From a bacterium (GTDB lineage: Bacteria > Planctomycetota > JAFGQW01), in NCBI GenBank assembly GCA_030426805.1, contig JAUHXU010000003.1:665488-729487 (forward strand): 64,000 bases of DNA, given 5' to 3'. Of this stretch, positions 650-53,395 are shown one piece after another. The notes beneath the pieces were generated by a model. It was not told the DNA's origin and searched no databases. It saw only the letters and a program-made list of their open reading frames with translations. Each line of letters opens with the position of its first letter. Within the stretch, counting starts at the first letter, position 1. Position numbers and translations under genes: made by a program.

Positions 650-1648
650 CTACTGGAGAGTGATGTGGAGGTCGGGGGCGATCTCCGACACGGCGCTGCC
701 GTTGAGCGACACCGCGCTGGCGAAGATCCGGACGCCCTTGAGCGCCGCCGCGTTCGGAGCGTTGATCGTGAGCGAGAACGCACCGTTGGTCTGCGCCGTG
801 GTGCCGGTGAAGTTCGAGAAGACCTGCGGCACGTTCAGCGACGCGAACGTCAACGCGTCGAGCGAGAGCGGGATCGAGCGGCCGCCACCGATCGAGACGC
901 CGGCGTTGCCGAACGAGCACGCGGCGACGTAGGTCTCGCCGCGTCCGAGGCGACCGTCGATCTGGATCGCGGTGCCGACCACCGGCTGCGACACGAGGAA
1001 GAGCGCGCCGTTGAAGTAGTTCAGGTCATCGATCACGCCGTCGCCGAAGCCGGCGGCGCCGACCTTGCCGGTCGCGCCGAGGCCGAACGTCGTCGCGGCC
1101 GAGCGCGAGTAGTCCCACCGGCCGTCCATGTCCCAGTCGACGAACGCCTCGACGAGCACGCTCGAGGCCTGCTCGACGACTTGCATGCGGATGCGCGCTT
1201 GCTTGAACGCGGTCAGCGACGTCGCGGTGAACGGCACGAGCGTCTCGTAGCCGTGGATGTCGTGGAAGTAGAGGAAGATCGAGTCGAAGCCGTCGTACGG
1301 CCCGAAGCTGTCTTGCACCTTGAGCTGGAAGAAGCCGGCGGTGCCGCCGCTGCCGGAGTGACGCGCGATCACACCGCTGTAGCACAGCGTCGTGGCCGTG
1401 TGCGTCGCGACGACCTCGATGCAACAGTCGTTGTCGGTGATCGAGTCGTTCGTCACCTCCTGGAACGTCAGCGCCGAGTCCTGCACGAGGGTCGTGCCGG
1501 AGACGGTCCAGTCACCGCGCTCCTCGGTGTAGCCCGGCACGCTGGTGCCGGCGCCGTAGTTGAACGGATCCGTGAACTGCTGCGCGATCGAACCGCCGGC
1601 CGCACCGATCAGTGCGGCGAGGGTGAGCGCGACGCGTGACATACGCAT
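650..1648 (-). CDS. Secreted hypothetical protein; member of the window-wide paralog family with the shared C-terminal domain
   Basis: Start taken at the ATG for MRMSRVALTLAALIGAAGGSIAQ (signal peptide), which has a GGAAGG RBS. The C-terminus (...RGETYVAACSFGNAGVSIGGGRSIPLSLDALTFASL...) aligns with the conserved C-terminal module of the other paralogs. Confidence 0.6.
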   Translation of the reverse strand: MRMSRVALTLAALIGAAGGSIAQQFTDPFNYGAGTSVPGYTEERGDWTVSGTTLVQDSALTFQEVTNDSITDNDCCIEVVATHTATTLCYSGVIARHSGSGGTAGFFQLKVQDSFGPYDGFDSIFLYFHDIHGYETLVPFTATSLTAFKQARIRMQVVEQASSVLVEAFVDWDMDGRWDYSRSAATTFGLGATGKVGAAGFGDGVIDDLNYFNGALFLVSQPVVGTAIQIDGRLGRGETYVAACSFGNAGVSIGGGRSIPLSLDALTFASLNVPQVFSNFTGTTAQTNGAFSLTINAPNAAALKGVRIFASAVSLNGSAVSEIAPDLHITLQ

Positions 1649-1863
1649 CGTAGACCTTCCTTCGTCGTTGGACGGCACCTCGGGCCGTCACTCCTCTCTC
1701 CGGACGGTCGACTCGGCGGTTGGTTGTGCTTGGCATGCACGCCGGGACGACCACTATCTCTGAAGTCTGCTTCCAAGCTACTCCAGGTGTCCGAAGCCTG
1801 CAATCCCCAAAGGGTTGGAATGCACCGAGCAGAGAATTCCGACGCCAAGGGCGGGGTCGGGGG

Positions 1864-1906
1864 TTGACGGATCCGGGAAACATCCTAATATCCGAATATT
1901 CGGATA
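1864..1906 (+). promoter_or_regulatory. Sigma70-like promoter (TTGACG-N16-TAATAT) with an overlapping 18-nt perfect palindrome TATCCGAATATTCGGATA; putative autoregulatory operator of the downstream ArsR-type regulator
   Basis: -35 at 1864-1869 and -10 at 1886-1891. The perfect inverted repeat at 1889-1906 lies in an unusually AT-rich patch for this roughly 70% GC sequence. Confidence 0.5.
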
Positions 1907-1946
1907 CCCGGTTTCGCGAATCGAGACAGATCGGCAGACACGGACG

Positions 1947-4362: not shown

Positions 4363-4407
4363 CGGCGACACGTTTGAGTTGACGTGTCGCCGCAGACGAC
4401 GTATCTT
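4363..4407 (+). promoter_or_regulatory. Promoter TTGACG-N17-TATCTT for fic, embedded in a 10-bp-arm inverted repeat (CGGCGACACG-N10-CGTGTCGCCG)
   Basis: -35 at 4379-4384 and -10 at 4402-4407. The ATG at 4414 lies about 7 nt after the -10, which suggests a leaderless transcript. Inverted-repeat arms are at 4363-4372 and 4383-4392. Confidence 0.4.
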
Positions 4408-4413
4408 CCAGAT

Positions 4414-5556
4414 ATGTCGTCAAAACGCCATTCTGCGAACATGACCTGGGCTCCCGATCGCCCTTACAACGACCTGCCGCCCCTCCCGCCGGCCGCAGAC
4501 GTCGAGACGAAGCCCGTCCTCCGGCGGTGCGCGACCGCGCGAGCCGCCCTCGGCGAGCTCAAACACGCCGTCGACCTGATCCCGAATCAGGGCATCCTCC
4601 TGAACACGCTCCCGCTCCTCGAGGCCCAGGCCAGTTCGGAGATCGAGAACGTCCTCACGACCGCCGATGCCCTTTTCCGCCACCTCGAAGCGGAGCGGGA
4701 CGTCGACCCGGCCACCCGCGAGGCACTCCGCTACCGGGAAGCCCTGATGGACGGCTACCGGGCACTCGCCGACCGTCCGCTCGGCACGCGCACGGCCGAG
4801 GCGATCTGCACGCGCATCAAAGGCGTCGACATGCGCGTCCGCGTCGTGCCCGGCACCACGATCGCGAATGCGGCGACCGCGGAGACGATCTACACGCCGC
4901 CCGACGGCGAGTCCCGGCTCCGCGACCTGCTCGCGAACTGGGAGCGCTTCCTGCACGAACCCTCCGAGCTCGACCCGCTGATTCGGATGGCGATCGCACA
5001 CTATCAGTTCGAGGCGATCCACCCGTTCACGGACGGCAACGGCCGCACCGGGCGGATCCTGAACAGTCTCTACCTCGTGCAGCAGGGGCTCATCGCACTG
5101 CCCGTGCTCTACATGAGCCGCTACATCATCGCAAACAAGCGCGACTACTACCGCATGCTCGCGGCGGTCACGCGCGACGACGACTGGGAACCGTGGATCG
5201 TCTACATGCTGTCGGTGATCACCGACACGGCGCAGTGGACCACGGCCAAGATCTCGGCGATCCGCTCGCTGGCCAACCAGACGAACGAACACGTGCGGCG
5301 CCACCTGCCGAAGATCCACAGTCGCGAGCTGATCGACGTGCTCTTCGAGCAGCCGTATTGCCGTATCGGCAACGTCACCGACGCGGGCATCGTCAGGCGG
5401 CAAGCGGCGTCACGCTACCTGCAGCAGCTCGCGTCGATCGGCGTGCTCGAGGCGCACCGCATCGGCCGCGAGTTGCTGTTCACGCACCCCCGCTTGCTCC
5501 ACCTCCTGACGACCGACGCGAACGACTTCGCGCCGTTCGAGCCTACTGCACCGTGA
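4414..5556 (+). CDS. Fic-family protein (class II Fic AMPylator/adenylyltransferase)
   Basis: Canonical Fic motif HPFTDGNGRTGR is present. An N-terminal inhibitory-helix-like motif SSEIEN matches (S/T)xxxE(G/N). Length about 380 aa. The ORF-track start at 4384 (GTG) lies inside the -35 box, so the ATG at 4414 is preferred. Confidence 0.8.
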   Translation: MSSKRHSANMTWAPDRPYNDLPPLPPAADVETKPVLRRCATARAALGELKHAVDLIPNQGILLNTLPLLEAQASSEIENVLTTADALFRHLEAERDVDPATREALRYREALMDGYRALADRPLGTRTAEAICTRIKGVDMRVRVVPGTTIANAATAETIYTPPDGESRLRDLLANWERFLHEPSELDPLIRMAIAHYQFEAIHPFTDGNGRTGRILNSLYLVQQGLIALPVLYMSRYIIANKRDYYRMLAAVTRDDDWEPWIVYMLSVITDTAQWTTAKISAIRSLANQTNEHVRRHLPKIHSRELIDVLFEQPYCRIGNVTDAGIVRRQAASRYLQQLASIGVLEAHRIGRELLFTHPRLLHLLTTDANDFAPFEPTAP

Positions 5557-6766
5557 AGCCGGCGGTGTTCGCGACCGCTTGCAGGCCGGCGCCGGTGAAC
5601 GTGACGAAGGACACGTAGAAGCGCAGCCCCTGGAGCGGGCCGTTCGGGATCACGACGCCGGCGGCGGCGGTGCCGTTGGCGCCGAGCGTGCCGACGAAGC
5701 CGGGGAAGAGTGCAGGCACGTTCTGGCTCAACAGGAACAGCGTGTCCGGCGTGAGATCGACCGTGCCGATCGGCAGCGCAAACCCCGGTGTGTGCGAGAA
5801 GGACGCAGCCGCGACGTAGTTCGCGCCGGCACTGCCAGGCTCGCTGAAGCGCAGGGCGAGCGTCGTACCCGGCGTCGGGTCGGCGGCCGCGACGACGTTG
5901 CGGCTTCCATAGACCTCGACGTCGAGCGGGAACGGAATCGCGGTCAGCGTCGTCGCGTTCCCGCTGCGATCCACACGAATCAGGTTCGCGTTCGCGGTCG
6001 CGCAACTACCGCCCATGACGAACGCATCCCGCGTGCGATCGTATGCGAGGCCCGGGAAGCAGCCGTTGAACCCGCCGACGATCGTCGTCATCGTGCCGAG
6101 CGTCAGGTTCACCGAGACCAGGCTGTTCTGCTGGCTCACGATCGCCTCGCCGGTGCGGGCATCGCTGATCATGTCGATCGAGTTGTTGATCGCGACCGAA
6201 CCCACCACGAGCGACGACGTGCCGTCGCGTCGCACCGAGAAGAGGTTCGGGATCTCACCCACGAGGTAGCTGCCGGTGCCGATGTCGACCGCCATTCCGC
6301 GCGGCTTGCCGTTGCCGATCGACGGCGCGGGCATGATCGTCGTGACCGCGCCGGTCGCGTCCATCTTGCCGATCATGATGCTGCTCAACCCGATCAGCGG
6401 CACGAGGTAGCTGCCGTCCTGGTCGACCGCGAGGTTCTCGCTGAAGCTGACCGGCAGCGTACCGACGGTCGCGACCGCACCGCCCGGCGACACCTCGGCG
6501 ATGAACGCCGCCGAGCCGGAGCTGCCGAGGACGGCGACATCGCGGTTGTTGGGCGCCATCGTCGCGGCGCTGATCCGGAAGCCGAACGTCGTCATCGTCG
6601 TGATCACGCCGTTGGGCGTCACGGTGAGCAATGCCGCCCCGCCGGTGACGCTCGCCGGGACGACGTAGTCACCCGGGGCCGGTTGGGCCGTCGCGCGAGG
6701 CGCGCCGATCGACGTCGCGAGCGCGAATCCGGCCACGAGCAGCCGCTGTCGGAAAGAGTGGATCAT
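5543..6766 (-). CDS. Secreted hypothetical protein, paralog family with the shared C-terminal domain
   Basis: Start at the ATG for MIHSFRQRLLVAGFALATSIGAPRATAQ (signal peptide) with an AGGAGA RBS. The C-terminus LALRFSEPGSAGANYVAAASFSHTPGFALPIGTVDLTPDTLFLLS...GLRFYVSFVTF is the family signature. The 3' end overlaps the fic stop convergently. Confidence 0.7.
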   Translation of the reverse strand: MIHSFRQRLLVAGFALATSIGAPRATAQPAPGDYVVPASVTGGAALLTVTPNGVITTMTTFGFRISAATMAPNNRDVAVLGSSGSAAFIAEVSPGGAVATVGTLPVSFSENLAVDQDGSYLVPLIGLSSIMIGKMDATGAVTTIMPAPSIGNGKPRGMAVDIGTGSYLVGEIPNLFSVRRDGTSSLVVGSVAINNSIDMISDARTGEAIVSQQNSLVSVNLTLGTMTTIVGGFNGCFPGLAYDRTRDAFVMGGSCATANANLIRVDRSGNATTLTAIPFPLDVEVYGSRNVVAAADPTPGTTLALRFSEPGSAGANYVAAASFSHTPGFALPIGTVDLTPDTLFLLSQNVPALFPGFVGTLGANGTAAAGVVIPNGPLQGLRFYVSFVTFTGAGLQAVANTAGFTVQ

Positions 6767-8863: not shown

Positions 8864-10273
8864 GTGTCGGCCATGCTCGATCGATCCCACCGCGTGGCCA
8901 TCGCCGCCGCGCTCCTGACGCTCGCCGGCTGCGCGGCTTCGGGCCCGGGTTTCCGCGCCGACGAGACGCCGGCACTCGCGCCCGCGCGCACGACGCCGGC
9001 CGCGCCAGCCGCGGTCACACCGCGGAAGCGATCCGACGAGCCTGCGCGGCTGCACGACTCCGACGGTCGCCTCTCGCTCGCGGGCGCCCTGCGCACCGCA
9101 CTGGAGACGAGCCCGCGCATCCGCGCCGCGCGCGAAGCCGCCGGCGCAGCGGCAGCCCGCGAAGGACACGTCGCCGCATTGCCGGATCCGATGGTGCGCC
9201 TCGGCTGGTACGCCGAACCGATCGAGACCCGAACCGGCCCACAACGCTGGTCGCTCGCCGTGCAACAGGCGATCCCGTGGCCGGGCGCGCTCACGGCCAC
9301 CGCGCGGGTCGCCGAGGCGGGCCGCCGTGTCGCAGAGACGCGGGCAGCGATCACGACGCGCGACGTGCTCGTCGACGTCGCGCGCACCTACCACGAACTC
9401 GACTACCTGCACCGTGCCCGTCAGACGACGACGGCGATCACGCGCGCCCTCGAACGGCTGGTCGCATTCGCCGCGCGAGGTGACGACGACGGACAGGCAC
9501 GCATCCCCGAGACGGTCCGCGCCGAGACGTGGCTCGTGCGCACACGCAACGACGCGCTGATGCTCGAGGAACTCGAACGCACCGAACGCGCACGACTCCG
9601 CTCCCTGCTCGGCCTCTCCCCCGACGCGTCGATCGGCACGCCTCGCGGCATCATCGCGATACCGTTGAATGCATCGGTCGACGCTCTGGCTGCACGCGCG
9701 GAGCAGGGCAACCACGATCTCGCGCTCGCCGCGCTCGAGGCCGAACACGCCGAGCGCGACGCCGAGCGCCTCGCGACGCGCAGCTATCCCCAACTCGCGA
9801 TCGGCGGCCGCTACATCGCGACCGAACGGCGCGACGACGCGGACCCGCGCGGCAACGGGGACGACCCGCTGTTCCTCGAACTCGGGGTGTCGATCCCGAT
9901 CTGGCTCGGCGCGAACGGCGCGGCACACCGCGAGGGCGCGAGTCGTGCGCGCGCCGCCGCGCACGCGCACGACGCGATGCGTCACCGGCTGCGTGCCGAC
10001 ATCGCGCGGGCCTACTGGCGCGCCGCGAACGCCGAACGGTTGTGGCACCTGCATCGCGACGCGTTCGTCCCGCAGGCGCAGCGCGCGGCTGCATCCGCGG
10101 AAGCGCTGTTCGACGAGGGCCACGCGTCGTTCACGGCCGTCGTCGAGACACTCGCCGCGTGGCACCAACTCGAACTCGCGATGCACCGCGCCCGCGCCGA
10201 CTACTTGCAGACGATCGCCGCGATCGAACGCCTCGTCGGCGCGCCGCTCGCTCGCACCGGAGACGACCGATGA
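8864..10273 (+). CDS. TolC-like outer membrane efflux protein (OMF lipoprotein, CusC/CzcC-like), copy 1
   Basis: Signal peptide plus lipobox (LLTLAGCAAS). An alpha-helical, Ala/Arg-rich TolC-like repeat structure, about 470 aa. GTG start at 8864 (ATG at 8873 is an alternative). Confidence 0.75.
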   Translation: MSAMLDRSHRVAIAAALLTLAGCAASGPGFRADETPALAPARTTPAAPAAVTPRKRSDEPARLHDSDGRLSLAGALRTALETSPRIRAAREAAGAAAAREGHVAALPDPMVRLGWYAEPIETRTGPQRWSLAVQQAIPWPGALTATARVAEAGRRVAETRAAITTRDVLVDVARTYHELDYLHRARQTTTAITRALERLVAFAARGDDDGQARIPETVRAETWLVRTRNDALMLEELERTERARLRSLLGLSPDASIGTPRGIIAIPLNASVDALAARAEQGNHDLALAALEAEHAERDAERLATRSYPQLAIGGRYIATERRDDADPRGNGDDPLFLELGVSIPIWLGANGAAHREGASRARAAAHAHDAMRHRLRADIARAYWRAANAERLWHLHRDAFVPQAQRAAASAEALFDEGHASFTAVVETLAAWHQLELAMHRARADYLQTIAAIERLVGAPLARTGDDR

Positions 10274-11781
10274 TCCGCGCAGCACTCGCGCTCGTCGTCG
10301 TGGTCGTCGCCGGTTGCGCCCACCCCGCGCCGGCGCCGACGACGACGCCGTTCGCGCGCGACTTCATCGATGCGGCAGACGCGGCAGACGCGGCGGCCGC
10401 CGAAGAGCCGGCGAGCGCACCCGTCCCGTCGGCCGAGCCCGCCGAGCGACCGGCGGTCCGCGGCCGCGACGACGAACTCGCCGCGACCCTCGGCGGCTCC
10501 GCGCCGCCGATCGACCTGACCGACGACGACCGCTTCGCGTCGTGGCTCGCTGAACCGCGCACAGCCGACGCGCTGATGCGCGCCGCCTGGTTGCGCCATC
10601 CGGCCGTCGCCGCTGCACGCGCGAAGCACCGCGCCGTCGCCCATCGCTACGACCAAGCGCACTACCTCGCCGACACCGTCGGCCGCTACCGCACGTTCAC
10701 CCGCACCCAGATGCAGCGGATCGGTCCGTCCGGCGCCGCGGGCACGCGCGCCGCCGAGTCGATGCTCGTCCCGGCGCCCTCGATCGCGACGCTGCGTGAA
10801 CGCCTCGCGACGCTCGCGACCGACGACGCCTGGCAACGACTGCGCAAGACGATCGTCGACCGGGCGGCGGACGTTCTGGACGCGACCGCGGCACTGCGAC
10901 TCGCCGCGAACCTCGAGCGGATCGCGACCGCGCATGCGGCGCTCCTCGGCGACCTCGAACCGGTCGTGCAGCGACGCGTGTCCGCGGGGCACGGCAGCCG
11001 CGCCGACGTGCTGCGCATCCGCGCCGCAATCGCCGACCTCGAACGCGAGGCGACGGTCCGCGCCGCGGAGCGGACGCACGCGACGACGTGGCTGCGCACG
11101 GCACTCGCTTGCGACGGCACGCCCGAGGTCCGACTCGCGTCCGCGCCGCGCTGGGCGGCGCCGCCGGCAGCCGCCGACCTCGAGCGCGTCGCGCGCACCG
11201 ACGCACCGGCAAGTCGAATCGCGGCGATCGCCGAGGCGCGGGCCGATGCGGCGATCGCGCTCGCCGAACGCATGACGATCCCGCAGGTCGACCTCGGCTC
11301 GACACGCGTGGAGCGCGGGATGACCGGCGACGCCGGCGACGCGCGCACGCCGATGTTGACGCCGACACGGCCCCGCGTCGACGTCGGCCCGATCGGCTTC
11401 GCGCCGACGACCGCGATGCTCGACGAGTTGCGCGAGCGACGCGCGGCGGCGCGCGAACACGTGCGGAGCGTCGCGCGCGACACGACGACGGCGGCGTCCG
11501 CCGCGCGCACGCGCGTGATCGACGCCGATGCACGCTTCGCGGTCCACGAATCGCGGCTCGTCCCGCTGAGCCGCCAGGCATACGACACGCTGCTCGGCGC
11601 CTATGCGGGCCGTCGCGCCGCGTTCGTCGACGTGATTCGCGCCGCCGAGGAGCGGCTGCGCGTCGACCGCGGCCTCGCGCAAGCACAGCACGACGCGACC
11701 CGCGCGCGCGCGACGCTCCTCCGAGCGACCGGCGATGCGCGCACGATCCCCTTCGCACCCACCGCCGGAGACGACCGATGA
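10270..11781 (+). CDS. TolC-like outer membrane efflux protein (OMF lipoprotein), copy 2
   Basis: The ATG overlaps the upstream stop (ATGA). Lipobox VVAGCAHP. It ends in ...TGDDR, as copy 1 does, and has similar composition, which suggests a tandem paralog. Confidence 0.7.
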   Translation: MIRAALALVVVVVAGCAHPAPAPTTTPFARDFIDAADAADAAAAEEPASAPVPSAEPAERPAVRGRDDELAATLGGSAPPIDLTDDDRFASWLAEPRTADALMRAAWLRHPAVAAARAKHRAVAHRYDQAHYLADTVGRYRTFTRTQMQRIGPSGAAGTRAAESMLVPAPSIATLRERLATLATDDAWQRLRKTIVDRAADVLDATAALRLAANLERIATAHAALLGDLEPVVQRRVSAGHGSRADVLRIRAAIADLEREATVRAAERTHATTWLRTALACDGTPEVRLASAPRWAAPPAAADLERVARTDAPASRIAAIAEARADAAIALAERMTIPQVDLGSTRVERGMTGDAGDARTPMLTPTRPRVDVGPIGFAPTTAMLDELRERRAAAREHVRSVARDTTTAASAARTRVIDADARFAVHESRLVPLSRQAYDTLLGAYAGRRAAFVDVIRAAEERLRVDRGLAQAQHDATRARATLLRATGDARTIPFAPTAGDDR

Positions 11782-12467
11782 AGACACTCGTCGTGCCCGT
11801 AGTCGCCGCGATCGTCGCTGGCGTCGCGATCGCGATCCTGATTCGCGCGGGCGGATCCCCGCCGCGACCGACACCCGCCCCGGCGTCCCACGCGCATGCC
11901 GGCCACGCGATGCCGGACAAGCCGAAGAAAGCCGACGCGCACGCGGGACACGCGAAGCCCGCTACACCGACCGACCCGAAACCGGCGGACCCGGCACCGT
12001 CTCCGCCCGACACGCTGCTCGCCCGCCTCGTCGACGCCGGCTACCGGGACGCCGGCAACGAGACGTGCCCGATCATGGGCAACGCGTCCGACGGCGACGA
12101 CCCGACCGTGATCGCCTACAACGGCTGGCTCGTTCGCTTCTGCTGTCCCGGCTGCGACACCCGATTCCTCGCGTCGCCGCGCGACCACCTGCGGGCACTC
12201 CGCGACGGCGGCGACACGATTCCCGACGCACTCCTCGCGGCGGACGCGCACCCCGCGGTCGTCCGCGCGAACAACACCGCGTGCCCGATCACCGGCGCAC
12301 CGGTCGACGACAAGAGCCCGACGATCGTGCACCGCGGAGTCGTCGTGCGGGTGCGCGACACCGACGCGCTCGTCGCGTTCGCGAAGGCGCCCGACCGTGC
12401 GCTCGCCGAGGCCGCAAAGACCGGGACCGTCCCCGCGGACCGCCTCCCCGGCGGAGGTGAACGATGA
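11778..12467 (+). CDS. Membrane-anchored periplasmic His-rich / Cys-motif putative metal-binding protein
   Basis: ATGA overlap with the upstream gene. An N-terminal TM segment is followed by the His-rich stretch HAHAGHAMPDKPKKADAHAGHAKP. Two repeats follow with CPI(M/T)G ... and FCCPGC Cys motifs. It sits inside the heavy-metal efflux operon. Confidence 0.6.
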   Translation: MKTLVVPVVAAIVAGVAIAILIRAGGSPPRPTPAPASHAHAGHAMPDKPKKADAHAGHAKPATPTDPKPADPAPSPPDTLLARLVDAGYRDAGNETCPIMGNASDGDDPTVIAYNGWLVRFCCPGCDTRFLASPRDHLRALRDGGDTIPDALLAADAHPAVVRANNTACPITGAPVDDKSPTIVHRGVVVRVRDTDALVAFAKAPDRALAEAAKTGTVPADRLPGGGER

Positions 12468-13858: not shown

Positions 13859-13871
13859 TCGGGAGTCGTCC

Positions 13872-17501: not shown

Positions 17502-17515
17502 TCCGGCCGATCAGC
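17497..17515. terminator. Bidirectional hairpin GCTGATC-cggcc-GATCAGC spanning the convergent stops of the RND and sulfotransferase genes
   Basis: 7-bp perfect stem with a 5-nt loop between convergent genes. No U-tract. Confidence 0.35.
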
Positions 17516-36352: not shown

Positions 36353-36380
36353 CGAACGCCCGGGGGTTCGACGGCGGTTC
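36353..36380 (-). promoter_or_regulatory. Candidate ECF-type promoter (GGAAC-N18-CGTTC) upstream of the ECF-fusion gene
   Basis: On the minus strand, GGAAC lies at 36380-36376 and CGTTC at 36357-36353. Speculative autoregulated ECF promoter. Confidence 0.25.
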
Positions 36381-36487
36381 CAACCGCTGCCGTGTACGGG
36401 TGGTGGCTACCTGACGCGCCGTTGACGATCGTGCGTGGGCCGGCTACCGTCTGGGCGGTGGTGGCGGGAAGTGACGGGAGCGCAACG

Positions 36488-41712: not shown

Positions 41713-42882
41713 ATGATGCGTGCCGTGCTCTTCCTACTGATGCTGGCCGTCGGCGCGGTCGGGGCGCAATACCAGCCGGGCGACCTGCTGTTCGCGGTCG
41801 ATACGCAATCGCCGGGCACCTACCTGCTCATGCGGTACACGCCGACGTCCAACGTCCCTTCGACGGTGGTGGGCTTCCCCGGGGCGCCCCGCACGATCTT
41901 GTCGAGCCCGGACAACCGATCGATGCTGATCTCGACGTGGGGCAAGACCCTCGCCGTGCCCCCCAACGGCGTCGTGCAGACCGTCTCCGGAACGGTCCCC
42001 GGTGCACTGATGGAGCTGGACGGCGCTGGACGGCTGTGGGGAAGCGACTTCGGCGTGCGCACGGTCGATTTCTTCGACTTCACCCCGGCGGGCCCCGCCC
42101 GGCTACGAACCTACAACGTGTTGGCATGGGGCAATCCGGTGTTGGAGCCGCACTCGGGACACGCGATCGACACGTTTGCGAATCGGGCGTACACACTGCA
42201 CGGGCCGAGCGTGACGACCACGCTCAATCTGCCGAGTTTCGCCGGCGCCAACGCAGAGTGGTCGCCCGAGCTCGCAGCGATGGTCGGCAAGCACGGCGAC
42301 CACCTCGCGGCGTTCACACTCGCGTCACCGCCCCTCGTGACGACGTTGGTGACCAACGCCAAGCCGAACGTGATCGAACGCGGACCCCGGGGCACCCTCT
42401 TCTCCATGAGCCTATGGCACAACCGCATCGACGAGTTCGATCCGATCCAAAACGTCACGATCCGCAGCCTCCCTCTGCCGCCCCGGTCGCAACCGCTGAT
42501 GGCCGTCGCCCGCGGCCGCACGCTGGCCGGCCTGGGGCCTGCGACCCGCGGTTCAACGTGGCCGCTGCGCATCTCGTTTCCCGGCGAACCGGGCGCCCTC
42601 TACATGTCGGCGATCGCGTTCTCGATCCACCGCGGATCCCCGATCGGCAACGGGTTTCGCCTCTTCCTGGCGCACGATCCGCTCCTTCGGCTCTCCGTTA
42701 CCAACGCCGGCCTCTTCACCGGAATGCACGGCCAATTGGACGCGCGCGGCGAAGCCTCCGCACGGGTGACCATTCCGCAACTCGCCGGGCTCGCCGGCCT
42801 GCGCATCTTCGCCCAGGCGATCGCAATTCGTAGCGGCCGGGTCGTCGGCGCATCGGCGCCGGTCGGCGTGACGATCCCGTAG
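41713..42882 (+). CDS. Secreted hypothetical protein, paralog family
   Basis: MMRAVLFLLMLAVGAVGAQ (signal peptide) with a GAGGAA RBS. The C-terminus LRISFPGEPGALYMSAIAFS...GLRIFAQAIAI is the family signature. Confidence 0.7.
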   Translation: MMRAVLFLLMLAVGAVGAQYQPGDLLFAVDTQSPGTYLLMRYTPTSNVPSTVVGFPGAPRTILSSPDNRSMLISTWGKTLAVPPNGVVQTVSGTVPGALMELDGAGRLWGSDFGVRTVDFFDFTPAGPARLRTYNVLAWGNPVLEPHSGHAIDTFANRAYTLHGPSVTTTLNLPSFAGANAEWSPELAAMVGKHGDHLAAFTLASPPLVTTLVTNAKPNVIERGPRGTLFSMSLWHNRIDEFDPIQNVTIRSLPLPPRSQPLMAVARGRTLAGLGPATRGSTWPLRISFPGEPGALYMSAIAFSIHRGSPIGNGFRLFLAHDPLLRLSVTNAGLFTGMHGQLDARGEASARVTIPQLAGLAGLRIFAQAIAIRSGRVVGASAPVGVTIP

Positions 42883-42918: not shown

Positions 42919-45516
42919 ATGCCGTACGCTCTCCGCGCATTGCTCGCGGTCTTCGCACTCCTCGTGTCCGGCTGTGGCGGCGGAGAAGCGCCCGAGCCCC
43001 CGATCGCGACGGCCGTCACGCAACTGCGGGTTCAGGACGTCGTCCGCGACGAGAAGCTGATGGGGCTCGACATCAGTTGGCGGGGCAAGCTGGATCCGGC
43101 GGCAGTGAAGGCGTTGCAGGCGCACTCGGCGATCGCCGGCGTCGACCGGCGCATGGACGAAGCGTCCGGGACGATGCGCGTCGACGTTCGTGCGAACCAC
43201 GGCGACCTCGCCCGGCTGATCCTCTACACCGACCCGAAGTCCGATGATGTGCTGGGCTACTACTGCGAGTTGCGGAGTCCGGCACGCAAGCCACGTCGCC
43301 CGGGCCCCGACGCGTGGGGTGAGCGATGCCGTCGTCAGTTCGAGATGAGGCCGCTCGGTTTCTTCGGCACGGTGGACTCGCAAGGACCCACGCTGGTCTT
43401 CGACACGGACCTGCCCCGTCGGTATGCCGCGGTGCGGGATCGGCGCCTGGTCGGTTTCCTCGTCGCGACGGCAGACTTCTTCCGTCCGGATTGCCACGGC
43501 TTCCAGTCGCGGGCCGAGATCCTCGCCGACGCGAAACGACGGATCGAGGAGAAGCGCCCGCGCGAGAACCCGCTGATCGACTACGAGATCGCGGGCGTCG
43601 AGTTGAAGGAGGTCGGCCGCCAGTTGGCGGCACTGCGCAAGACGATCGCCAAAGAGCGCCACCGGGAGCAGCAGCGAGAAGGCGCGAAGCGGTGGGAGGC
43701 GTTTCTCGCGGAAGTGCGCGACGAGCCGTTCGACGTGAAGATGCAGCGCTACGCGGATGCGTACGGGCGACTGCCGACGTCCGGACGGTTCGCCGTCGAC
43801 CGGGCGCTCCGCGCCGACGCGCGGCGCGAGCTGGAGGCGACGGACGTCGGGGTCGCGCGGCGTTCGATGCTATCCAGCCTCGCGAAGTCGGGCTACCTGT
43901 CCCGGGCGAAGACGCTCCTCGCGTATGCGAATACGATCGATGGTTCACCGAACCTCGAGGCACTCGGAGCGTGGTATGCAAATCGCGACCCGCGCGCGAA
44001 CAAGCGGTTCGCCCAACGCGTCAACCAAGCGGTTCGGTTGCGCGCGTTGCACTTGCTCGCGGCCGAACGCAAGGCGCTCGCGAACCGAACGGGCGGCGCA
44101 ACGTACACCGCGCTCGGCGCGGTGAGGCGCGCGCTGAACGCACGACGCACGACGGTGACGCTCGACCTCCGCGCGACGGAGCGCTGGCTGGAGACGTGTC
44201 GCGCGTTCGACACGCTCACCGATCCGTTCGAGCGGGTCGCCGCAGCACCGTGGCTGACCGCGCCGACGAAGGCTGTCGGGGAGCGGGTCGCGCGGGCCGT
44301 TTGCCCCGCGTTGAAGCGCCAGCTGGTCGAGCGGGCGGGCGCCGCTGCCGAAGCCGGCCGGAAAGCGACGGCGGCAGCGTGCTGGCTCGCGGCGGCCGTC
44401 GCGGGCCGCGACACGTGGCCGACCGCGACGACCGGGGAGCAGCTCATCGGCAAACGGGCCACCCCGGACGATCCGCTGGCGCAAGCACGACACGCGTTGC
44501 TGATCGAGAGCCTGCAGTTCGTACCGACGCCCGACGACGGCGCGCGCGACCTCGACCCGGTGCTGATCGACGGGGCGGCGCTGGAGTGGCCGATCGTGTC
44601 CAAGCTCGGCATCGCCTACTCGCCGAGCGCGAGGCGACGAAAGGCGATCAACGAGATCGGTGGCCGAACGGACAAGGTCACGCGCCTGCTCCGTCGCAAC
44701 GGCCGTGTCGCGTGGGTCGACATCCTGCGCTCGACGCCTGACGAGCGCCTGCCCGGGACACCGGTTCAGTTCCTCGCGCCGACGCGTGACGCACTGTCGG
44801 CGAAGTCGCGCAGAGAATCCGACGCGCTGAACCGCGAGAGCGAGGCATTGCGTGCGCGGGCGAAGGAACTCGAGGACTTGCCGCCGACCAAGGACTCCAA
44901 CGAGTTCGCGCGGCGATGGAAGATGCGCGAGGAGTTCGCGAAGCGACAACAGCGCTACAACGAGCGTACGGCCGAATGGGCCGACGCGGCGGCGAAGGAA
45001 CTCGCGCCTCGCTACGCCCGCGTGCGCTACGCGCGACGCACAGTGCTCGACGACTACGTCGACACGAGCTTGTTGGTCTACTCGCGACAGGTGGGCCGCA
45101 GCCTCGGCGGCGGCGAGGCGAACGAACGCGAGGTCGCGTGGATGCGCTGGTTCTTCGGGCGATCGACGCCGGGGTTCGAAGGGCTGCCGATCGAGCGGGG
45201 TGACAATCCGAACACACGCATGCGACGGTGCGATCGCCTCGAGCGGGAGGCACTGGAGCAGCCGGGCCGAGCCGAGATGGGGCGTGCAATCGCGCGCTTC
45301 TGGGACGCGGCCGAGGCGTGCGACCTCCCCCGGCGCGCCCCGCGCACGCGCAAGCTGCTCGATCAATACCGGACGACGTTCACGGCCGCACATGTGCTCG
45401 AGCACGTCGTCAAGGCGGCGAAACACGGCAAGACGCTCGAAGCCGAGGTTCTCTCGAAAGACGAGCGCCAGGAACTCGAGCGGAGCGAGCAGCGAAAGAA
45501 AACGCGACGCCGCTAA
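42919..45516 (+). CDS. Large hypothetical lipoprotein (865 aa)
   Basis: Lipobox LLVSGCGGG. Charged and helical; no recognisable domain. Confidence 0.65.
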   Translation: MPYALRALLAVFALLVSGCGGGEAPEPPIATAVTQLRVQDVVRDEKLMGLDISWRGKLDPAAVKALQAHSAIAGVDRRMDEASGTMRVDVRANHGDLARLILYTDPKSDDVLGYYCELRSPARKPRRPGPDAWGERCRRQFEMRPLGFFGTVDSQGPTLVFDTDLPRRYAAVRDRRLVGFLVATADFFRPDCHGFQSRAEILADAKRRIEEKRPRENPLIDYEIAGVELKEVGRQLAALRKTIAKERHREQQREGAKRWEAFLAEVRDEPFDVKMQRYADAYGRLPTSGRFAVDRALRADARRELEATDVGVARRSMLSSLAKSGYLSRAKTLLAYANTIDGSPNLEALGAWYANRDPRANKRFAQRVNQAVRLRALHLLAAERKALANRTGGATYTALGAVRRALNARRTTVTLDLRATERWLETCRAFDTLTDPFERVAAAPWLTAPTKAVGERVARAVCPALKRQLVERAGAAAEAGRKATAAACWLAAAVAGRDTWPTATTGEQLIGKRATPDDPLAQARHALLIESLQFVPTPDDGARDLDPVLIDGAALEWPIVSKLGIAYSPSARRRKAINEIGGRTDKVTRLLRRNGRVAWVDILRSTPDERLPGTPVQFLAPTRDALSAKSRRESDALNRESEALRARAKELEDLPPTKDSNEFARRWKMREEFAKRQQRYNERTAEWADAAAKELAPRYARVRYARRTVLDDYVDTSLLVYSRQVGRSLGGGEANEREVAWMRWFFGRSTPGFEGLPIERGDNPNTRMRRCDRLEREALEQPGRAEMGRAIARFWDAAEACDLPRRAPRTRKLLDQYRTTFTAAHVLEHVVKAAKHGKTLEAEVLSKDERQELERSEQRKKTRRR

Positions 45517-45821: not shown

Positions 45822-47115
45822 GATGAGAACCCGGGCAGCACTCCACGCGGCTGCACTCGTCGCGATCACCGCGATCGCCGCGCCGAGCCAGGACCGCTTC
45901 GTCGTCGCCGGCTGGACGACGTCGACGCCGCAACCGCTCCTCGAGATGGACGCGACCGGAACGTCGTTCACGACCGTCCTGACGTTTCCGTGGAACTTCG
46001 GTGTCCACGAGATTCGCATGGCCGACGACAACCGGTCGTATCGGATCTTCGGCCGCGACACGCAGCTCGGGCCACAGGCGATCCTCGACGCCACCGGCGG
46101 CGTGCTCACGACCGTCGCGAGTGGCGGGCCGTTGTTCCTCGCGTTCGGCGGCGTCAGAAACAGCGACGGCGACTGGTACGTGCTGAACCGCACCCCGCTC
46201 AGCGACCTGACGATCCTGCGGCTGCGAGGGAACACACTCACCCAGCTCTCGACGGCCGGCAAGATCACGCCGATCGCACTGACGCGCGACGAAGCGACCG
46301 GCCAGTTGATCGTGCGTGGCACGATCATCGGCGGGGCGTCCGGCTACTTCCGGATCGACCCGAACACCGGCACGGTCACGAGCCTCGCCGCGCGTGCGGC
46401 GAACACCACCGCGACCGGCAGCGTCGAGTTGCTGTACGACCCGGCGACCGGTGGCGTCATCGACGGACAGCGGATCAACCTCGCCGCGCAGGTCATGCTC
46501 GTCGATCCCACGTTCGGCGAGGTGCCGTTCGGAGCGGCGCTGCAAACCCATGTGCCGATCGGCATGGCGCGGTCCGGCCCGCGCCGGCACCCGGTGGCCT
46601 ACTACCTGCTCACGCACCAGACCGCGGGAAATCCGCACGTCTTCCAGTATCAGGGGGATGGGTCGATCACGGTCACGTCGTCGTTCCCGACCCCGATCTT
46701 CCCCGCTGCGTTCGCCCGCATCGGCGCGCGCCACCTCGCGTGGTTCGTCAACCGCGCGCCGAACGACCGGCGGCTACGCGTGTCGTTCCCCGGCGAAGGG
46801 GGCAAGGCGTACACGGTCGCGTTCAGCCTGACCGGAATGCGGCCGGGCATCGGACTCCCGGACGGCCGCACGATCCCGCTCGTCGTCGATGCGCTGACGG
46901 TGGCGTCGCTGGCCGGCGGGATTCCGAACGTGCTCCAGAACACGGTGGGATTCCTGAACGCGCAGGGGCAGGCGGTCGTCACCGTCGACACGAGTCGCTT
47001 CGGGAGCGCGCTGAAGGGGCGCAAGGCCTGGGCCGTCGCCGTGCTGCTCGACCCGGCCAGCCCGACGGGAGTGGCCTACATCACGAAGCCGACGCTCCTC
47101 GAAATCAACGAGTAA
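45822..47115 (+). CDS. Secreted hypothetical protein, paralog family
   Basis: MRTRAALHAAALVAITAIAAPSQ (signal peptide). The C-terminus LRVSFPGEGGKAYTVAFSLTGMRPGIGLPDGRTIPLVVDALTVASL is the family signature. Confidence 0.7.
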
Positions 47116-47133: not shown

Positions 47134-49614
47134 TCAGTTGATGCGGAAGCTCTCGGTGTTGGAGATCGAGTGGATGCCCTGGGGGGCGCCGGGCTTGAAC
47201 GTGACGAACGCGGAGTAGACGAACAGCCCGATCAGGGCTTGCTGGTTCGGGACGCGCACCGTCGCGAGACCGGCACCGTGGTTGTCCAGCACGCCGCCGT
47301 AGCCGGCGAACGTGCCTGGCGCGAGACCACTCGTCGACAAGAGCAGCAGCGCATCCGCGCTCAACCCGAGCGGACGCGTGCCGATCGGCGTCGGCCCCGT
47401 CCCGAGCGATGAGCCGACCTGATACGAAAGGCCCCCGTCGTCGGAGAGGTTCAGCGTGACGAGCCCGCCGATGCGCGATGAGCCGCCGACCTTCAGATCG
47501 GTGGTTTGGATCTTCGCGACGAACTGGTCGGCGCCGCTACTGCTCCGGTTGTACGTCAGGTCGGGACCGACACGCACCGGGAACTGCGTCTGGTTGGCCC
47601 AGGTCGAGCCGGCCACCCAGGCGTTGTTTCCGAGCGGGTCGGTCGCGCACGCCCGTCCATCATCGGAGAGCGCGCTGCCGAGGAGCGTGCAGTACTCGAG
47701 TGCGGCGCCTGCGGGGTCGACGCGCGCGATGAACGCGTCGCCGTTGCCGAGGTACGGAAACGACGGGCCGACGACCAGGAAGTCCGAGCTGCGCGTCACC
47801 CCGACGACCGTCGCGCGACCGCCGGCGTCGACGGCGACCGCATCCGCCGAGTCGTACGCCGATCCTCCGATGTAGCCGAGATACTCCCAGCCGCTCCCGT
47901 CGGGTCGGAGCCGCCCGACGAATCCGTCGTGGGTCGCACCGGAGCTGCGATGAACGAGGCCCGGTCCGACCGCGACGGGAAAGGTCGACTCGGTACTCAG
48001 CGTCCTGCCGCACACCGAGGCCCGGCCGGTGGGGTCGACGGCGATGCCCGAGAAGTCGGCCCCGCGGATGCCACCGATGAACCCGCAGAAGTCGAGCGAC
48101 GCACCGCTGGCGTTCACCTTCGCGACGAAACCCTCCGGGGGCTGCGTCGGCGACTGGCGCACGAGTAGCGGACCGACGCGAACGGGCAGGCTCTGCTCAT
48201 CGCTCGTCGTTGCGCCGACCACATACGCGGCGCCCCACGGGTCGACCGCGATCGCCCGACCGGTCTCCTGCCCGGCGCCGCTGATGAAACCGCAATAATC
48301 CAGACCGCTTCCGTCGGGCTTCACCCGCGCGACGAGGACCGACTGGGAGCCGTTCGCCTTCAACGACGGTCCCACCCTGATCGGGAGGGAGGCCTGCGGA
48401 CTGGTCGTCGCGCCGACGACGTAGGCGCTACCCAGCGCGTCGACGGCGATCCCGGTAAGCTGATCGAGCCCCGTACCCCCGATGTAGCCGCAGTAGTCGA
48501 GCAGCCTTCCGTCGGGGCGAACCTTGGCGACGAACCCGTCATACCCGCCGGCGATCGTCAACGACGGTCCGCCGACGACCGGGAAGGTCGCCTCGGTACT
48601 GTCGGTCGTTCCGGTGACGTACGCCGCGCCGGTCGCGTCCACCGCGATCCCGATGCCCGAATCCCTGGAAGCGCCCCCGATGAAGCCGCAGTAGACGAGC
48701 CCCGTGCCGTCGATCCGCACCTTGGCGACGAATGCATCGCTGAAGGAGCGACTGTTGTGTGTCAGATCCGGTCCGACCTTGACGGGGAATGTCGTCTCGT
48801 CGGAGAACGTGCTTCCCGTGACGTAGAGCGCACCCTTCGGGTCGACCGCGACATCCGTGATGGAGCCGGACTGTGCGCCGCCGAGGTAGCCGCAGTAGAT
48901 CAGCATCGGCGGGTCGATCACGAGCGGGCGCGTTCGGTCGTAGGCGGCCACGTCGAACGCGACGTCGCATCCATCCGGCGCCGGGTTCACGACGAGCGTC
49001 GCTGCGACGGACTCTCGCGTATCACCCGCGAGCTGATGCACGACCGGTGGCTCTTCCTCGATCTCGCCGGCCGGCGTGATCACGCGGAGCCCGCCGGCGT
49101 CGGTGCGCGCGATGCGCTCGGCTCCCTTGTAACGGAACCGCGCACGCGTCGGGTCGGCGCCCGGGTGAACGACGGCATCGTATTTGAGTCGACTGCCGAC
49201 GATCTTGTAGACGACGTCGATCCCCGGCCAGACGTCGCGGTAGACGATGCGCTCGTATGTCGGGAGCCCGGCCTGCGATCGGCCGCCGCCTCGGAAATAG
49301 CTCACGACCGTGTCGGCCTTCGCTTCGCCCACCGGCACGACCTCGGCGCCGTCGACGAACGAGAGCTTCACCGTCCACGCCGGTTCGCCCGCGAGCCGAA
49401 ACGTCACGCCGCTCGACGTGAAGAACACGGTCCGTCCGCTCGCTTCGACGAAGTAGCGAACCGCGGTCGGATAACGACCGCGGTTCTCCACGAGCGGCGT
49501 GGACAGGCCGCTCATGATCGCCTCGGCCTTTGCCCGCGAAACCGTCTGGGCAGCCGCGGAGCACCCAATGGCTGCGAGCAGAAGCGCAACCGAGCAATCT
49601 CGAACTCGACCCAT
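47134..49614 (-). CDS. Secreted beta-propeller (SBBP) repeat protein carrying the paralog-family C-terminal domain
   Basis: Signal peptide plus possible lipobox (LLLAAIGCSAAAQ). At least seven repeats DGFVAKVxxDGSGLxYCG(Y/F)IGGxxxDxGxGIAVDxxGxAYVTGxTxSxxxFPV match the SBBP pattern. The C-terminus PIGTRPLGLSADALLLLS...GLFVYSAFVTF is shared with the paralogs. GGAGGTG RBS. Confidence 0.8.
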   Translation of the reverse strand: MGRVRDCSVALLLAAIGCSAAAQTVSRAKAEAIMSGLSTPLVENRGRYPTAVRYFVEASGRTVFFTSSGVTFRLAGEPAWTVKLSFVDGAEVVPVGEAKADTVVSYFRGGGRSQAGLPTYERIVYRDVWPGIDVVYKIVGSRLKYDAVVHPGADPTRARFRYKGAERIARTDAGGLRVITPAGEIEEEPPVVHQLAGDTRESVAATLVVNPAPDGCDVAFDVAAYDRTRPLVIDPPMLIYCGYLGGAQSGSITDVAVDPKGALYVTGSTFSDETTFPVKVGPDLTHNSRSFSDAFVAKVRIDGTGLVYCGFIGGASRDSGIGIAVDATGAAYVTGTTDSTEATFPVVGGPSLTIAGGYDGFVAKVRPDGRLLDYCGYIGGTGLDQLTGIAVDALGSAYVVGATTSPQASLPIRVGPSLKANGSQSVLVARVKPDGSGLDYCGFISGAGQETGRAIAVDPWGAAYVVGATTSDEQSLPVRVGPLLVRQSPTQPPEGFVAKVNASGASLDFCGFIGGIRGADFSGIAVDPTGRASVCGRTLSTESTFPVAVGPGLVHRSSGATHDGFVGRLRPDGSGWEYLGYIGGSAYDSADAVAVDAGGRATVVGVTRSSDFLVVGPSFPYLGNGDAFIARVDPAGAALEYCTLLGSALSDDGRACATDPLGNNAWVAGSTWANQTQFPVRVGPDLTYNRSSSGADQFVAKIQTTDLKVGGSSRIGGLVTLNLSDDGGLSYQVGSSLGTGPTPIGTRPLGLSADALLLLSTSGLAPGTFAGYGGVLDNHGAGLATVRVPNQQALIGLFVYSAFVTFKPGAPQGIHSISNTESFRIN

Positions 49615-50686: not shown

Positions 50687-51061
50687 CTCGGGCGCTCCTC
50701 TCGATTCGATTCCAGGGGCGGATTGTAGCAGGCCGTCAGGGCCACGGTCCTGTTGCGCAACCGCCCTCCGGCGGCGGCGTGTTTCGCGCCGAGACGAAAT
50801 CCGCCCGAATCTTCGTAGCCGCGGCGGCCGAATTTGCGGAAGGGTAAGGCTGGCCGCCCCCGGCGGCCGAAGAGACCGATGCCGCTCGTCGGCTCGCTGA
50901 AGACAGGTGCGGGCCGTGAAACCACACGATATAGTCAGGATGGAGCGAACAGACGGCGCGATGATCGACTCGCCCTACGACGCGAGCCCCGGCATGCCAC
51001 CGGATCCGACCGCCACACGCTCCGTGCGACCCGGCTGCGCGACGGCGCACCCGGCGAGGTG

Positions 51062-52144
51062 ATGGAGAAGACGACGATGCGAGTGCGGGCCTGGCCGGCG
51101 TTTGCCAGCCGAACGCGAAATCCCTACAACTGGCTGCTCTACACGACGCTGCGCGACATGGGCGTGGAGGTCGACGAGTGGTCTCCGGCCGAGTCGATCA
51201 CACCGGGCGACTCCGAGGAGCCGACGGTCTACCACCTGCACTGGCCGGAGCACCTGTTGCTGCTGCCGAGCGCGGCGCAAGCCAACGAGATGCTCGTCCG
51301 TCTCGGCGATTGGTTCGACCACGCACGCGCGAACGGGCACAAGGTCTTCTGGACCGTCCACAGCCTCAAGCAGCAGCGCACCCACCACCCCGAGCTCGAA
51401 CGGCCGCTGTTCGACCTCGTCACCCGCCGCGTCGACGCGGTGATCCACATGAGCGACGGCGCCCGCGGTGCGGCCGAACACGCGTTCCCCGCGATCCGAA
51501 ACAAGCCGAGCTTCGTGATCCCGCACGGTCACTACCGCGACGTCTACCCGAACGCGATCAGCCGCGAGGACGCGCGGCGCGCGCTCGACCTGCCGAGTGA
51601 CGCGACCGTGATGGCGTTCGTCGGGTGCATGCGATACAACAAGAACCTCCCGAGCCTCGTGCGCGCGATGCGCGGGCTCGCCGATCCCAACACGTTCCTG
51701 TTGCTCCACGGCGAGGTGCCCGATCGCACGCTCGCTGCCGAGATCGCGTTCATGGCCGGCGGCGATCAGCGCGTGCGCTTCACGCCGATCCGCGTCGAAG
51801 AGAACGCGCTTCAACGCAACCTGAAGGCGGCCGACCTCGTCGTGCTGCCCTACACCAACTTGTTGAACTCCGGCGCCGCGATGCTCGGGCTGTCGTTCGA
51901 CCGCCCGGTGCTCGTCCCGGCGAGCGGCGCGATGCCGGACCTGCAGGAAGCCGTCGGTCGCGACTGGGTCTTCACCTACCAGGGCGAACTGAGCGGCGTC
52001 GACCTCGCGGTCGCGCTCGAGGCGTGCACCGCGGTGCGCGACCGACACGCCGACCTCTCGTTCGCTTCCTGGGATCGCATCGCGGCGAAGACGCTCGACG
52101 CCTACCGCGAGATCACCCCGCAGGTCGAAGTCACGAGCGTCTGA
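51062..52144 (+). CDS. Glycosyltransferase (GT-B, GT1/GT4-like)
   Basis: C-terminus LVVLPYTNLLNSGAAMLGLSFDRPVLVPASG. It is preceded by an intergenic region of about 375 bp. Confidence 0.65.
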   Translation: MEKTTMRVRAWPAFASRTRNPYNWLLYTTLRDMGVEVDEWSPAESITPGDSEEPTVYHLHWPEHLLLLPSAAQANEMLVRLGDWFDHARANGHKVFWTVHSLKQQRTHHPELERPLFDLVTRRVDAVIHMSDGARGAAEHAFPAIRNKPSFVIPHGHYRDVYPNAISREDARRALDLPSDATVMAFVGCMRYNKNLPSLVRAMRGLADPNTFLLLHGEVPDRTLAAEIAFMAGGDQRVRFTPIRVEENALQRNLKAADLVVLPYTNLLNSGAAMLGLSFDRPVLVPASGAMPDLQEAVGRDWVFTYQGELSGVDLAVALEACTAVRDRHADLSFASWDRIAAKTLDAYREITPQVEVTSV

Positions 52145-52162
52145 ATCGCCGGAGTCCGGCGC

Positions 52163-53395
52163 TCAACGCACCGAGAACGCGGCCGACGGGGCGACGTCGA
52201 TTCCCCCCGGAAACGCCGGGTTCTCCGCGACCGCAGCGACGAACAGCCGAAGCCCGACGGGCGCCGACGCCGGCAGCTTCACGGCGATCGTCGCCGAGCC
52301 GTTCGCATCCAGCCGCCCGCGCAACCCCTGCGTCACGCCCGGGATGTCGCCGTTGCCGATCGTCACCCGCGCGAGCGCGTCGATCGCGAGGTTGATCGTC
52401 CGGCGACCCGGCAGCGGAATCGCCGGCCGCAGTCCGGACAGCGACATTGCGGCGCGATACGGTCGGCCGGCGCTGCCCGGCATCGACAGGCGAAGCGAGT
52501 ACGTCGTGCCCGGGCGCGCGCTCCCGCTCCCGACGAGCTTGTGGCTGCCGTAGATCGCGATCGACCGGAACACCTGACTGTGCTCGCGTTTCACCGGCCA
52601 CGTGCGCAACACCGCGCCCTTCAGGGTCACCTCGAGGATATCGTCGAGCCGCACGAGGAAGAGGTTACCGGTCTCCGGGTCCGTCGTCACCGAGTAGAAC
52701 CCACCCGGCCCTTGCCATTGCAATACGGTTCCGCCGTTCTGATCGAGCACGAGGTAGTCGCTGACGGTCGAGGAGGCGTTCCCCACGACGGCGTAGTTCC
52801 CGCTCGCGTCGTCGAACGACACGACACCGGGAAACGGCAACGTCGTCAGCGTCGTGATCGCGGATCCCGTCATGCGGAGCAGATGCGCCCCACTCGGAGA
52901 GGTGGTGCCGCTGCGAGCCACGACGATGTCCCCGGAGTCGCGATCGATCGTCGGAAAGCCCGCACCACTCGAGAACAGCGCCACGGTGCTGAAGAGCCCG
53001 GAGGCGGACAGGCGGACCACCGCCGCCGATCGCGACGTCACGAACCCGGCGATGAAGCGCCCGTCCTGGTCGAGCGTCATGCCGGCCATGCCCGAATACA
53101 TCGACGTCGCGTACGACTGCGCGGACACGAGCACGCCGCTCGGGGACATGCGTCCGAAGATCAGCGGCCTGGCCTGGTCGACGATCCGAATGTCGGTGTT
53201 GTTCGCCGCCATCCACACACTTCGTCGCGAGTTCGACGGCAGCGGACCGACCAGCGCTTCCGCGCCGGTCACGCGATCGATCGATCGCACGCCGGTGTCG
53301 GACGACACGAGGAGGTCGCCCGGCTTGGGCTGGGCCCCGACGCCGGCCGTGACGGCGGCGAGCACGAGCGGGGCGAGGACGATACGGGCGATCAT
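52163..53395 (-). CDS. Secreted hypothetical protein, paralog family
   Basis: MIARIVLAPLVLAAVTAGVGAQP (signal peptide). The C-terminus YSLRLSMPGSAGRPYRAAMSLSGLRPAIPLPGRRTINLAIDALARV...GLRLFVAAVAE is the family signature. Confidence 0.75.
   Translation of the reverse strand: MIARIVLAPLVLAAVTAGVGAQPKPGDLLVSSDTGVRSIDRVTGAEALVGPLPSNSRRSVWMAANNTDIRIVDQARPLIFGRMSPSGVLVSAQSYATSMYSGMAGMTLDQDGRFIAGFVTSRSAAVVRLSASGLFSTVALFSSGAGFPTIDRDSGDIVVARSGTTSPSGAHLLRMTGSAITTLTTLPFPGVVSFDDASGNYAVVGNASSTVSDYLVLDQNGGTVLQWQGPGGFYSVTTDPETGNLFLVRLDDILEVTLKGAVLRTWPVKREHSQVFRSIAIYGSHKLVGSGSARPGTTYSLRLSMPGSAGRPYRAAMSLSGLRPAIPLPGRRTINLAIDALARVTIGNGDIPGVTQGLRGRLDANGSATIAVKLPASAPVGLRLFVAAVAENPAFPGGIDVAPSAAFSVR

Follow-up and report, generated by a model that had tools for sequence, protein, structure and literature searches.

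Exported proteins of several bacterial groups carry a common element at their C-terminus. In the type IX secretion system (T9SS), this element is a C-terminal domain (CTD) which adopts an immunoglobulin-like (Ig-like) beta-sandwich fold of approximately 80-120 aa and for which two types have been modelled (type A, TIGR04183/PF18962; type B, TIGR04131/PF13585). It is strictly C-terminal, with one domain per protein, and occurs on many unrelated Sec-exported passengers and in many paralogs per genome. The tags PEP-CTERM, LPXTG, MYXO-CTERM and GlyGly-CTERM are also attached to varied exported passengers and consist of a short motif, a transmembrane (TM) helix and a basic tail. Soli_cterm (TIGR03437), from Solibacter (Acidobacteria), is an uncharacterized, phylum-associated C-terminal domain of approximately 225 aa on many exported paralogs. 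Here, we describe a C-terminal domain that is encoded by eight genes (A to H) within 64,000 nucleotides of a Planctomycetota genome (assembly GCA_030426805.1, contig JAUHXU010000003.1, positions 665,488 to 729,487). This whole stretch is referred to as the window and has a G+C content of approximately 69%. Unless T9SS is specified, CTD refers to the domain of the window proteins, and retrieved homologues are designated by P numbers.

The CTD is similar to its T9SS counterpart in all of the features listed above. It is an Ig-like beta-sandwich (pLDDT 91.9 in the AlphaFold2 (AF2) model) at the extreme C-terminus of proteins with predicted Sec export, within three residues of the end in 156 of 159 sequences. 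The two domains are from different phyla and are not connected by a hidden Markov model (HMM) match. T9SS CTD models matched neither the eight proteins (E<=1), nor the isolated CTDs and their consensus (E<=10), nor 93 homologues, and no gene for the T9SS machinery (SprA, PorK/L/M/N, PorU/V) was found among the window ORFs (open reading frames) that were scanned. In contrast to the PEP-CTERM-type signals, the CTD is a folded, soluble domain of 115 aa. It ends in a beta-strand followed by one polar residue (R, Q or K), without a hydrophobic helix. Such anchors were rejected as an identity for the CTD because the C-termini of the window proteins (...AAFSVR, ...HITLQ, ...GFTVQ, ...ETVVQH, ...GVTIP, ...LEINE, ...SFRIN) have neither a TM segment nor a basic tail and none matches an NCBIfam sorting signal. 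A previous reading of this DNA, made from the letters alone (the sequence-only reading), had already described the module as devoid of a TM-plus-basic tail and as not fitting the T9SS consensus, and was correct on both points. Soli_cterm takes the position of the CTD on homologues of G (P0168, P0192, P0205). It is, however, about twice as long (approximately 225 aa versus 115 aa), and an identity of the two domains was rejected since hhalign gave a probability of 0.5% against four Soli_cterm tails and the TIGR03437 HMM does not match the window proteins. Of these known elements, the T9SS CTD is the nearest to it in function and Soli_cterm the nearest in concept.

The CTD is an autonomous Ig-like domain that defines a large family

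Our analysis shows that the CTD is one autonomous Ig-like beta-sandwich domain of approximately 115-120 aa, and that this domain defines a large, hitherto unnamed family to which the window genes belong and whose members are predicted to be Sec-exported. All eight ORFs were confirmed, and their last ~115 residues are mutually alignable by multiple alignment and pairwise BLAST, with few gaps and seven invariant columns. The similarity is positional and not compositional. In a leave-one-out HMM test, in which C and D were never used to score one another, the CTDs scored 52-97 bits, whereas 500 shuffles that preserved the composition reached at most 17 bits. No ninth copy emerged when the six-frame translation of the window was searched with an HMM of the eight members.

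The consensus derived from 150 family sequences (L.LS.PGDAG..Y..A.SLG..PGIPLPDGR.IPL.PD.L...G.LDA.G.A...IP...L.GLR.F..AV.LDP.AP.GI..ISNT..FTI[RQK]-COOH) agrees with the motif that had been written down from the eight proteins. Column conservation is highest for D (100%), G (97-99%), Y (95%), R (91%), S (87%) and F (75%), with several further G and P residues being near-invariant. The near-invariant polar residues (Y, S, R and D) are not at positions obviously belonging to a hydrophobic core. The mean pairwise identity is 38% for the CTD and 20% for the propeller that precedes it in many members, and in 99.8% of 630 pairs the CTD has the higher identity.

The designation of the domain as unrecognised stands against Pfam-A, NCBIfam and PDB sequence searches. 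Pfam-A and NCBIfam 20.0 gave no match on the tail in the eight proteins or in 93 full-length homologues, and isolated tails and the family consensus remained without a match to these databases even at E<=10. Sequence-profile searches of the PDB with the tail returned chance-level matches only. The AF2 model of the isolated tail is a beta-sandwich with one short helix (pTM 0.81). Foldseek found no match to this model at E<=1e-3; its best neighbours are PapD-like chaperones, and the structural neighbours are generic Ig folds only. In the model of full-length H (pTM 0.88), the CTD has a pLDDT of 94-98, and its orientation on the propeller is confidently fixed.

When 1.84 billion cluster representatives (50% identity) were searched exhaustively with HMMER, 4,354 of them matched the CTD at E<=1e-3 and 1,656 at E<=1e-10. 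The family size is based on this search, word-indexed searches with the tail profile having returned only six matches and one match. In all 159 retrieved sequences the CTD is single-copy, and in 156 of these it ends 0-3 residues from the C-terminus, which bears out the placement originally proposed. Most full-length homologues have signal-peptide-like N-termini. The passengers outside the window include further propellers (SBBP/DUF7948, Kelch, PD40, NHL, SGL, Vgb-lyase), ConA-like lectin domains (Laminin_G_3, DUF1349, GH43_C2), CBM96, M14 peptidase and beta-helix. Three SBBP homologues below the threshold (P0254, P0259, P0189) have C-termini which resemble diverged versions of the last two CTD strands (...Q.hh.D......G.S.TN.h.h.h). 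Going by such C-termini, the CTD superfamily may extend beyond the 4,354 matches.

All members for which the organism can be read are from Planctomycetota, among them the tail-bearing SBBP proteins P0231 and P0270, which carry the NCBI name '[Planctomycetes bacterium]'. A genome scan returned 19 loci, all in two metagenome-assembled genomes (MAGs) from Planctomycetota; it used one narrow G-type pattern, and the restriction to this phylum is thus a lower bound. The source genome contains at least three CTD copies beyond the window; P0018 and P0187 are encoded on the same contig, and P0187 has a tandem neighbour. CTD genes in other Planctomycetota loci also form tandem arrays, with up to four consecutive genes and 3-4 copies per 8-12 kb. 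The density of eight copies in 64 kb, which had been considered exceptional, is indeed high; clustering as such is, however, typical of the family. Homologues of three window genes adjoin CTD family members in the MAG loci, and the G+C content of the MAG JAFGQW01 matches that of the window. Together with the family relatives, both findings point to a planctomycetal origin of the window.

The eight window proteins and their passengers

Gene A (650-1648, minus strand; 332 aa) codes for a signal peptide, an unclassified N-terminal domain of approximately 200 aa and the CTD (coded by 653-997). The N-terminal domain has no PDB sequence match, and Pfam gives only a weak match to GEVED. In B (5543-6766, minus strand; 407 aa; CTD 5546-5890) and in H (52163-53395, minus strand; 410 aa; CTD 52166-52510), the full-length structure of the latter being the one modelled, a signal peptide is followed by a six-bladed beta-propeller and the CTD. 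C (39113-40318, minus strand; CTD 39116-39460) and D (40330-41535, minus strand; CTD 40333-40677) are tandem twins of 401 aa each, with a signal peptide or possible lipobox, a beta-propeller and the CTD. E (41713-42882, plus strand; 389 aa; CTD 42535-42879) is divergent from D, and, like F (45823-47115, plus strand; 430 aa; CTD 46768-47112), consists of signal peptide, beta-propeller and CTD. The sequence-only reading had listed the same eight ORFs, and all of them exist; the reading frame of F begins at 45823 rather than at 45822. In G (47134-49614, minus strand; 826 aa; CTD 47137-47481), a signal peptide is followed by DUF7948, SBBP beta-propeller repeats and the CTD.

The translations of all eight genes begin with a basic n-region, a hydrophobic h-region and an A-x-A-like site. 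Thus, the earlier claim of export is in agreement with signal-peptide-like N-termini in eight of eight proteins. In the propeller subfamily, 'AQPxxGD' is conserved at the predicted mature N-terminus. Lipoboxes had been considered possible in several proteins. The lipobox-like Cys is kept in homologues solely for the C/D subfamily (P0015, P0022) and is missing in P0068, a homologue of G.

The N-terminal regions had been described as differing from each other, with SBBP repeats in one protein and Gly/Ser/Thr-rich, beta-rich regions in the others. A and G do differ from the rest; for B, C, D, E, F and H, which have homologous six-bladed propellers, the description has to be revised. Homology extends from end to end in B, C, D, E and H (26-28% identity, E-values of 1e-13 to 1e-20 in pairwise BLAST), with B and H being 28% identical over their full length (E 4e-20). 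F and H are 43% identical in the CTD; their N-terminal similarity is weak in BLAST. The six proteins are whole-protein paralogs and not unrelated proteins with only a common tail. With a profile of the ~400-aa family as query, the 'Pizza' NHL propellers derived from PknD were matched over profile positions ~25-280 (E 6e-23), by which the six proteins are assigned to the six-bladed NHL/YWTD propellers; the Pfam models for NHL and SGL remain below threshold on the window proteins. Related propellers of this type include the PknD sensor domain, the YWTD domains of LRP and nidogen, and SGL lactonases. In contrast to the window proteins, which add the CTD, matches to solved structures end at the propeller: none of the top 60 extends beyond it (at most 277 residues), and the tail is unmatched in the PDB.

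G is assigned to the proteins with DUF7948 and an SBBP propeller because both Pfam models match above their gathering score: DUF7948 (PF25778) with 142.4 bits (E 3e-41; cut-off 27) and SBBP (PF06739) with 55.9 bits (E 4e-15; cut-off 20.5). The SBBP repeats are also visible as a DNA repeat family. The public annotation of this protein (P0160, 793 aa) begins 33 codons downstream and thus lacks the signal peptide. The longer version is supported because 'VSRAKAEA' is conserved upstream of the start called by NCBI in the homologue P0068. Among the 119 best DUF7948-SBBP homologues, 28 carry the CTD. Others end in RTX repeats, a dockerin, a PEP-CTERM-like TM-plus-Arg tail (P0256) or Soli_cterm. In four further homologues (P0211, P0214, P0220, P0262), the last SBBP repeat is directly followed by a short terminal motif (...[FVLI]Y[LM]P[LFI]..[RKE]-COOH), with the versions YLPFVVE, YLPLVMK, YMPIARR and YLPLILR. 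This ending could be another unmodelled C-terminal signal, from a different lineage.

Candidate functions of the CTD

We consider it most probable (with a probability of roughly 0.4) that the CTD is a shared module for sorting to, or retention in, the cell envelope. Its position is strictly terminal, with a single copy per protein; its passengers are swappable, its conservation is about twice that of the propeller, and polar residues (Y, S, R and D) are near-invariant in it. Therefore, the family members probably have one common partner in the envelope. The CTD would bind this partner and would thereby deliver varied exported binding proteins to the cell surface or hold them there. It would act like the T9SS CTD or an SLH-type anchor in function, not in ancestry, and the propellers would diversify as ligand-binding cargo. 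Two further observations are in favour of this reading: the DUF7948-SBBP passenger swaps C-terminal export or anchor modules, and CTD genes form tandem arrays in other loci. A more far-reaching version is considerably less probable. In this version, the CTD would serve as the recognition signal of a hitherto undescribed, Planctomycetota-specific pathway analogous in function to the T9SS CTD system, by which folded proteins would, after Sec export, pass the outer membrane or be placed on it.

Several points weigh against a sorting or retention function. Dedicated machinery or a conserved neighbour gene was found neither in the window nor in 22 related loci nor in two further loci (L024 and L025), and no secretion-system or sortase-like gene is adjacent to the CTD genes. 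Apart from antisense shadow ORFs, the search for conserved neighbours in the 22 loci returned no more than three genes that were shared in single cases (FxsA, SGL and a fusion with a sigma factor of the extracytoplasmic function (ECF) type). Literature searches on the CTD found nothing. For C and D, a lipid anchor may already be present at the N-terminus. The model of H suggests that the CTD is packed on the propeller in a fixed way, unlike a cleavable tag on a flexible tether. In many DUF7948-SBBP homologues, the C-terminal part is an ordinary Ig-like add-on (CarboxypepD_reg, FG-GAP, Flg_new_2). Because such plain accessory domains also occupy the C-terminus, an add-on at this position need not be a sorting signal. 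From the varied C-termini it follows that the DUF7948-SBBP passenger accepts many export or anchor modules and also plain accessory domains. Finally, a few proteins (P0004, P0052, P0148) consist only of a signal peptide and the CTD, which fits a binding domain with a function of its own better than a pure export tag.

These stand-alone proteins lead to the second of our ranked assignments, a carbohydrate-binding module (CBM)-like domain. In this case, the CTD would bind a carbohydrate or another ligand and target the protein to an external substrate (e.g., a sulfated or mannose-rich polysaccharide), with no role in sorting. The CTD is a beta-sandwich of CBM-like size, and the highly conserved Y, F, R and D residues would be compatible with ligand binding. 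The window is rich in glycan-related genes (three sulfotransferases, glycosyltransferases, GH92 and a polysaccharide exporter). CBMs, however, are commonly N-terminal, internal or in tandem, and the CTD is single-copy and nearly always terminal. Its passengers are mostly non-enzymatic propellers instead of glycoside hydrolases. The CTD sequence matches no CBM model and is thus not classified as a CBM. We regard a CBM-like function as possible, yet clearly less probable than sorting or retention.

Slightly less likely still is that the CTD is a passive structural domain, an Ig-like cap, spacer or stabiliser of the preceding domain, without a common partner. The predicted packing on the propeller of H would be expected for such a domain. 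Most passengers are beta-propellers, a propeller followed by a C-terminal beta-sandwich is a common architecture, and the structural neighbours, generic Ig folds, do not point to anything more specific. A passive role is, however, difficult to reconcile with a tail whose conservation is twice that of the domain to be supported, that also occurs behind lectin, peptidase and beta-helix passengers or alone, and that has near-invariant polar residues, which are unusual in spacer Ig domains.

An oligomerisation module, by which the proteins would build a surface lattice or multimers, is improbable. It would account for a conserved, strictly terminal domain; PapD-like and Ig folds often pair via edge strands, and genes in tandem arrays could be co-expressed. 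No repeat or lattice-type features were, however, seen.

Origin of the gene cluster and neighbouring genes

The eight genes had been interpreted as a lineage-specific expansion. This does not hold, except for C and D, given the CTD in 4,354 cluster representatives and the closest relatives of the window proteins. C and D have 80% protein identity and equal length, are separated by an 11-nt spacer and correspond to a DNA repeat which is 87% identical. B, E, F, G and H are each nearer to a protein from outside than to any other window member: B to its orthologue P0029 (85% identity), E to P0013 from another sample (99%), F to its full-length relative P0095 (41%), G to P0162 (65%) and H to P0118 (38%). 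For A, an outside match was found over the tail alone (P0004, 67% over the CTD). The propellers of the window paralogs are only 11-19% identical to each other. Since the outside relatives are nearer than the window members, the paralogy is old and common across Planctomycetota, and C/D is the only recent duplication. The local cluster would have arisen by old duplications and this one recent tandem duplication. A contingency family of surface proteins had also been considered. That the genes are such a phase- or antigen-variable family from a recent expansion, for which the copy number in the window and the C/D pair would speak, is very improbable and largely refuted by these distant propellers and outside relatives and by scans for tandem and direct repeats, which found no simple-sequence repeats, invertible elements or silent cassettes at the CTD genes.

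Two genes without a Pfam or NCBIfam match are interleaved with the CTD genes (42919-45516, plus strand, 865 aa; 53410-56394, plus strand, 994 aa). The 865-aa protein carries a clear lipoprotein signal (LLVSGCGG), is highly charged and is probably helical. The gene at 32827-36756 (minus strand) codes for an ECF sigma factor (regions 2 and 4) that is fused to a TM segment and at least six CarboxypepD_reg repeats; the start given here is provisional. A homologue of this fusion (32% identical) directly adjoins a CTD gene in a Planctomycetota MAG locus (L017, 2786-5515). The window ORF contains a 9-nt tandem repeat (4.9 copies, 35629-35672), which encodes (VAT)n. The gene at 28342-29052 (plus strand) is type IV pilin- or pseudopilin-like, with an N-terminal methylation motif followed by a DUF2950-like domain, and is the sole secretion- or pilus-related gene seen near the CTD family.

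A polysaccharide cluster (17511-27446) comprises three sulfotransferase-family genes, a Wzx-like flippase, a CTP-transferase/HAD fusion and a GT4 glycosyltransferase, which suggests synthesis of a sulfated glycan near the CTD genes. In two other loci that are independent of each other, a protein of approximately 315 aa with an FGE-sulfatase domain is encoded 0.2-1.3 kb downstream of the nearest CTD gene (L024, 13857-14798; L025, 20309-21262); it has no counterpart in the window. An efflux operon of the resistance-nodulation-division (RND) type for heavy metals or multiple drugs (OEP, CusB/HlyD and AcrB family) is found at 9529-17501, in a region with 72-75% G+C. A gene for a Fic/SoFic-like adenylyltransferase (4384-5556, plus strand) is located between that for adenosylhomocysteinase and gene B. 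A tRNA scan and an Rfam scan of the window found nothing.

With more than 4,000 protein clusters devoid of an annotation for this domain, the CTD merits a curated family model. It allows a candidate surface proteome to be defined from sequence alone. Protein sorting to the unusual envelope of Planctomycetota is poorly understood, and a conserved terminal tail on thousands of exported proteins provides a concrete handle on it.

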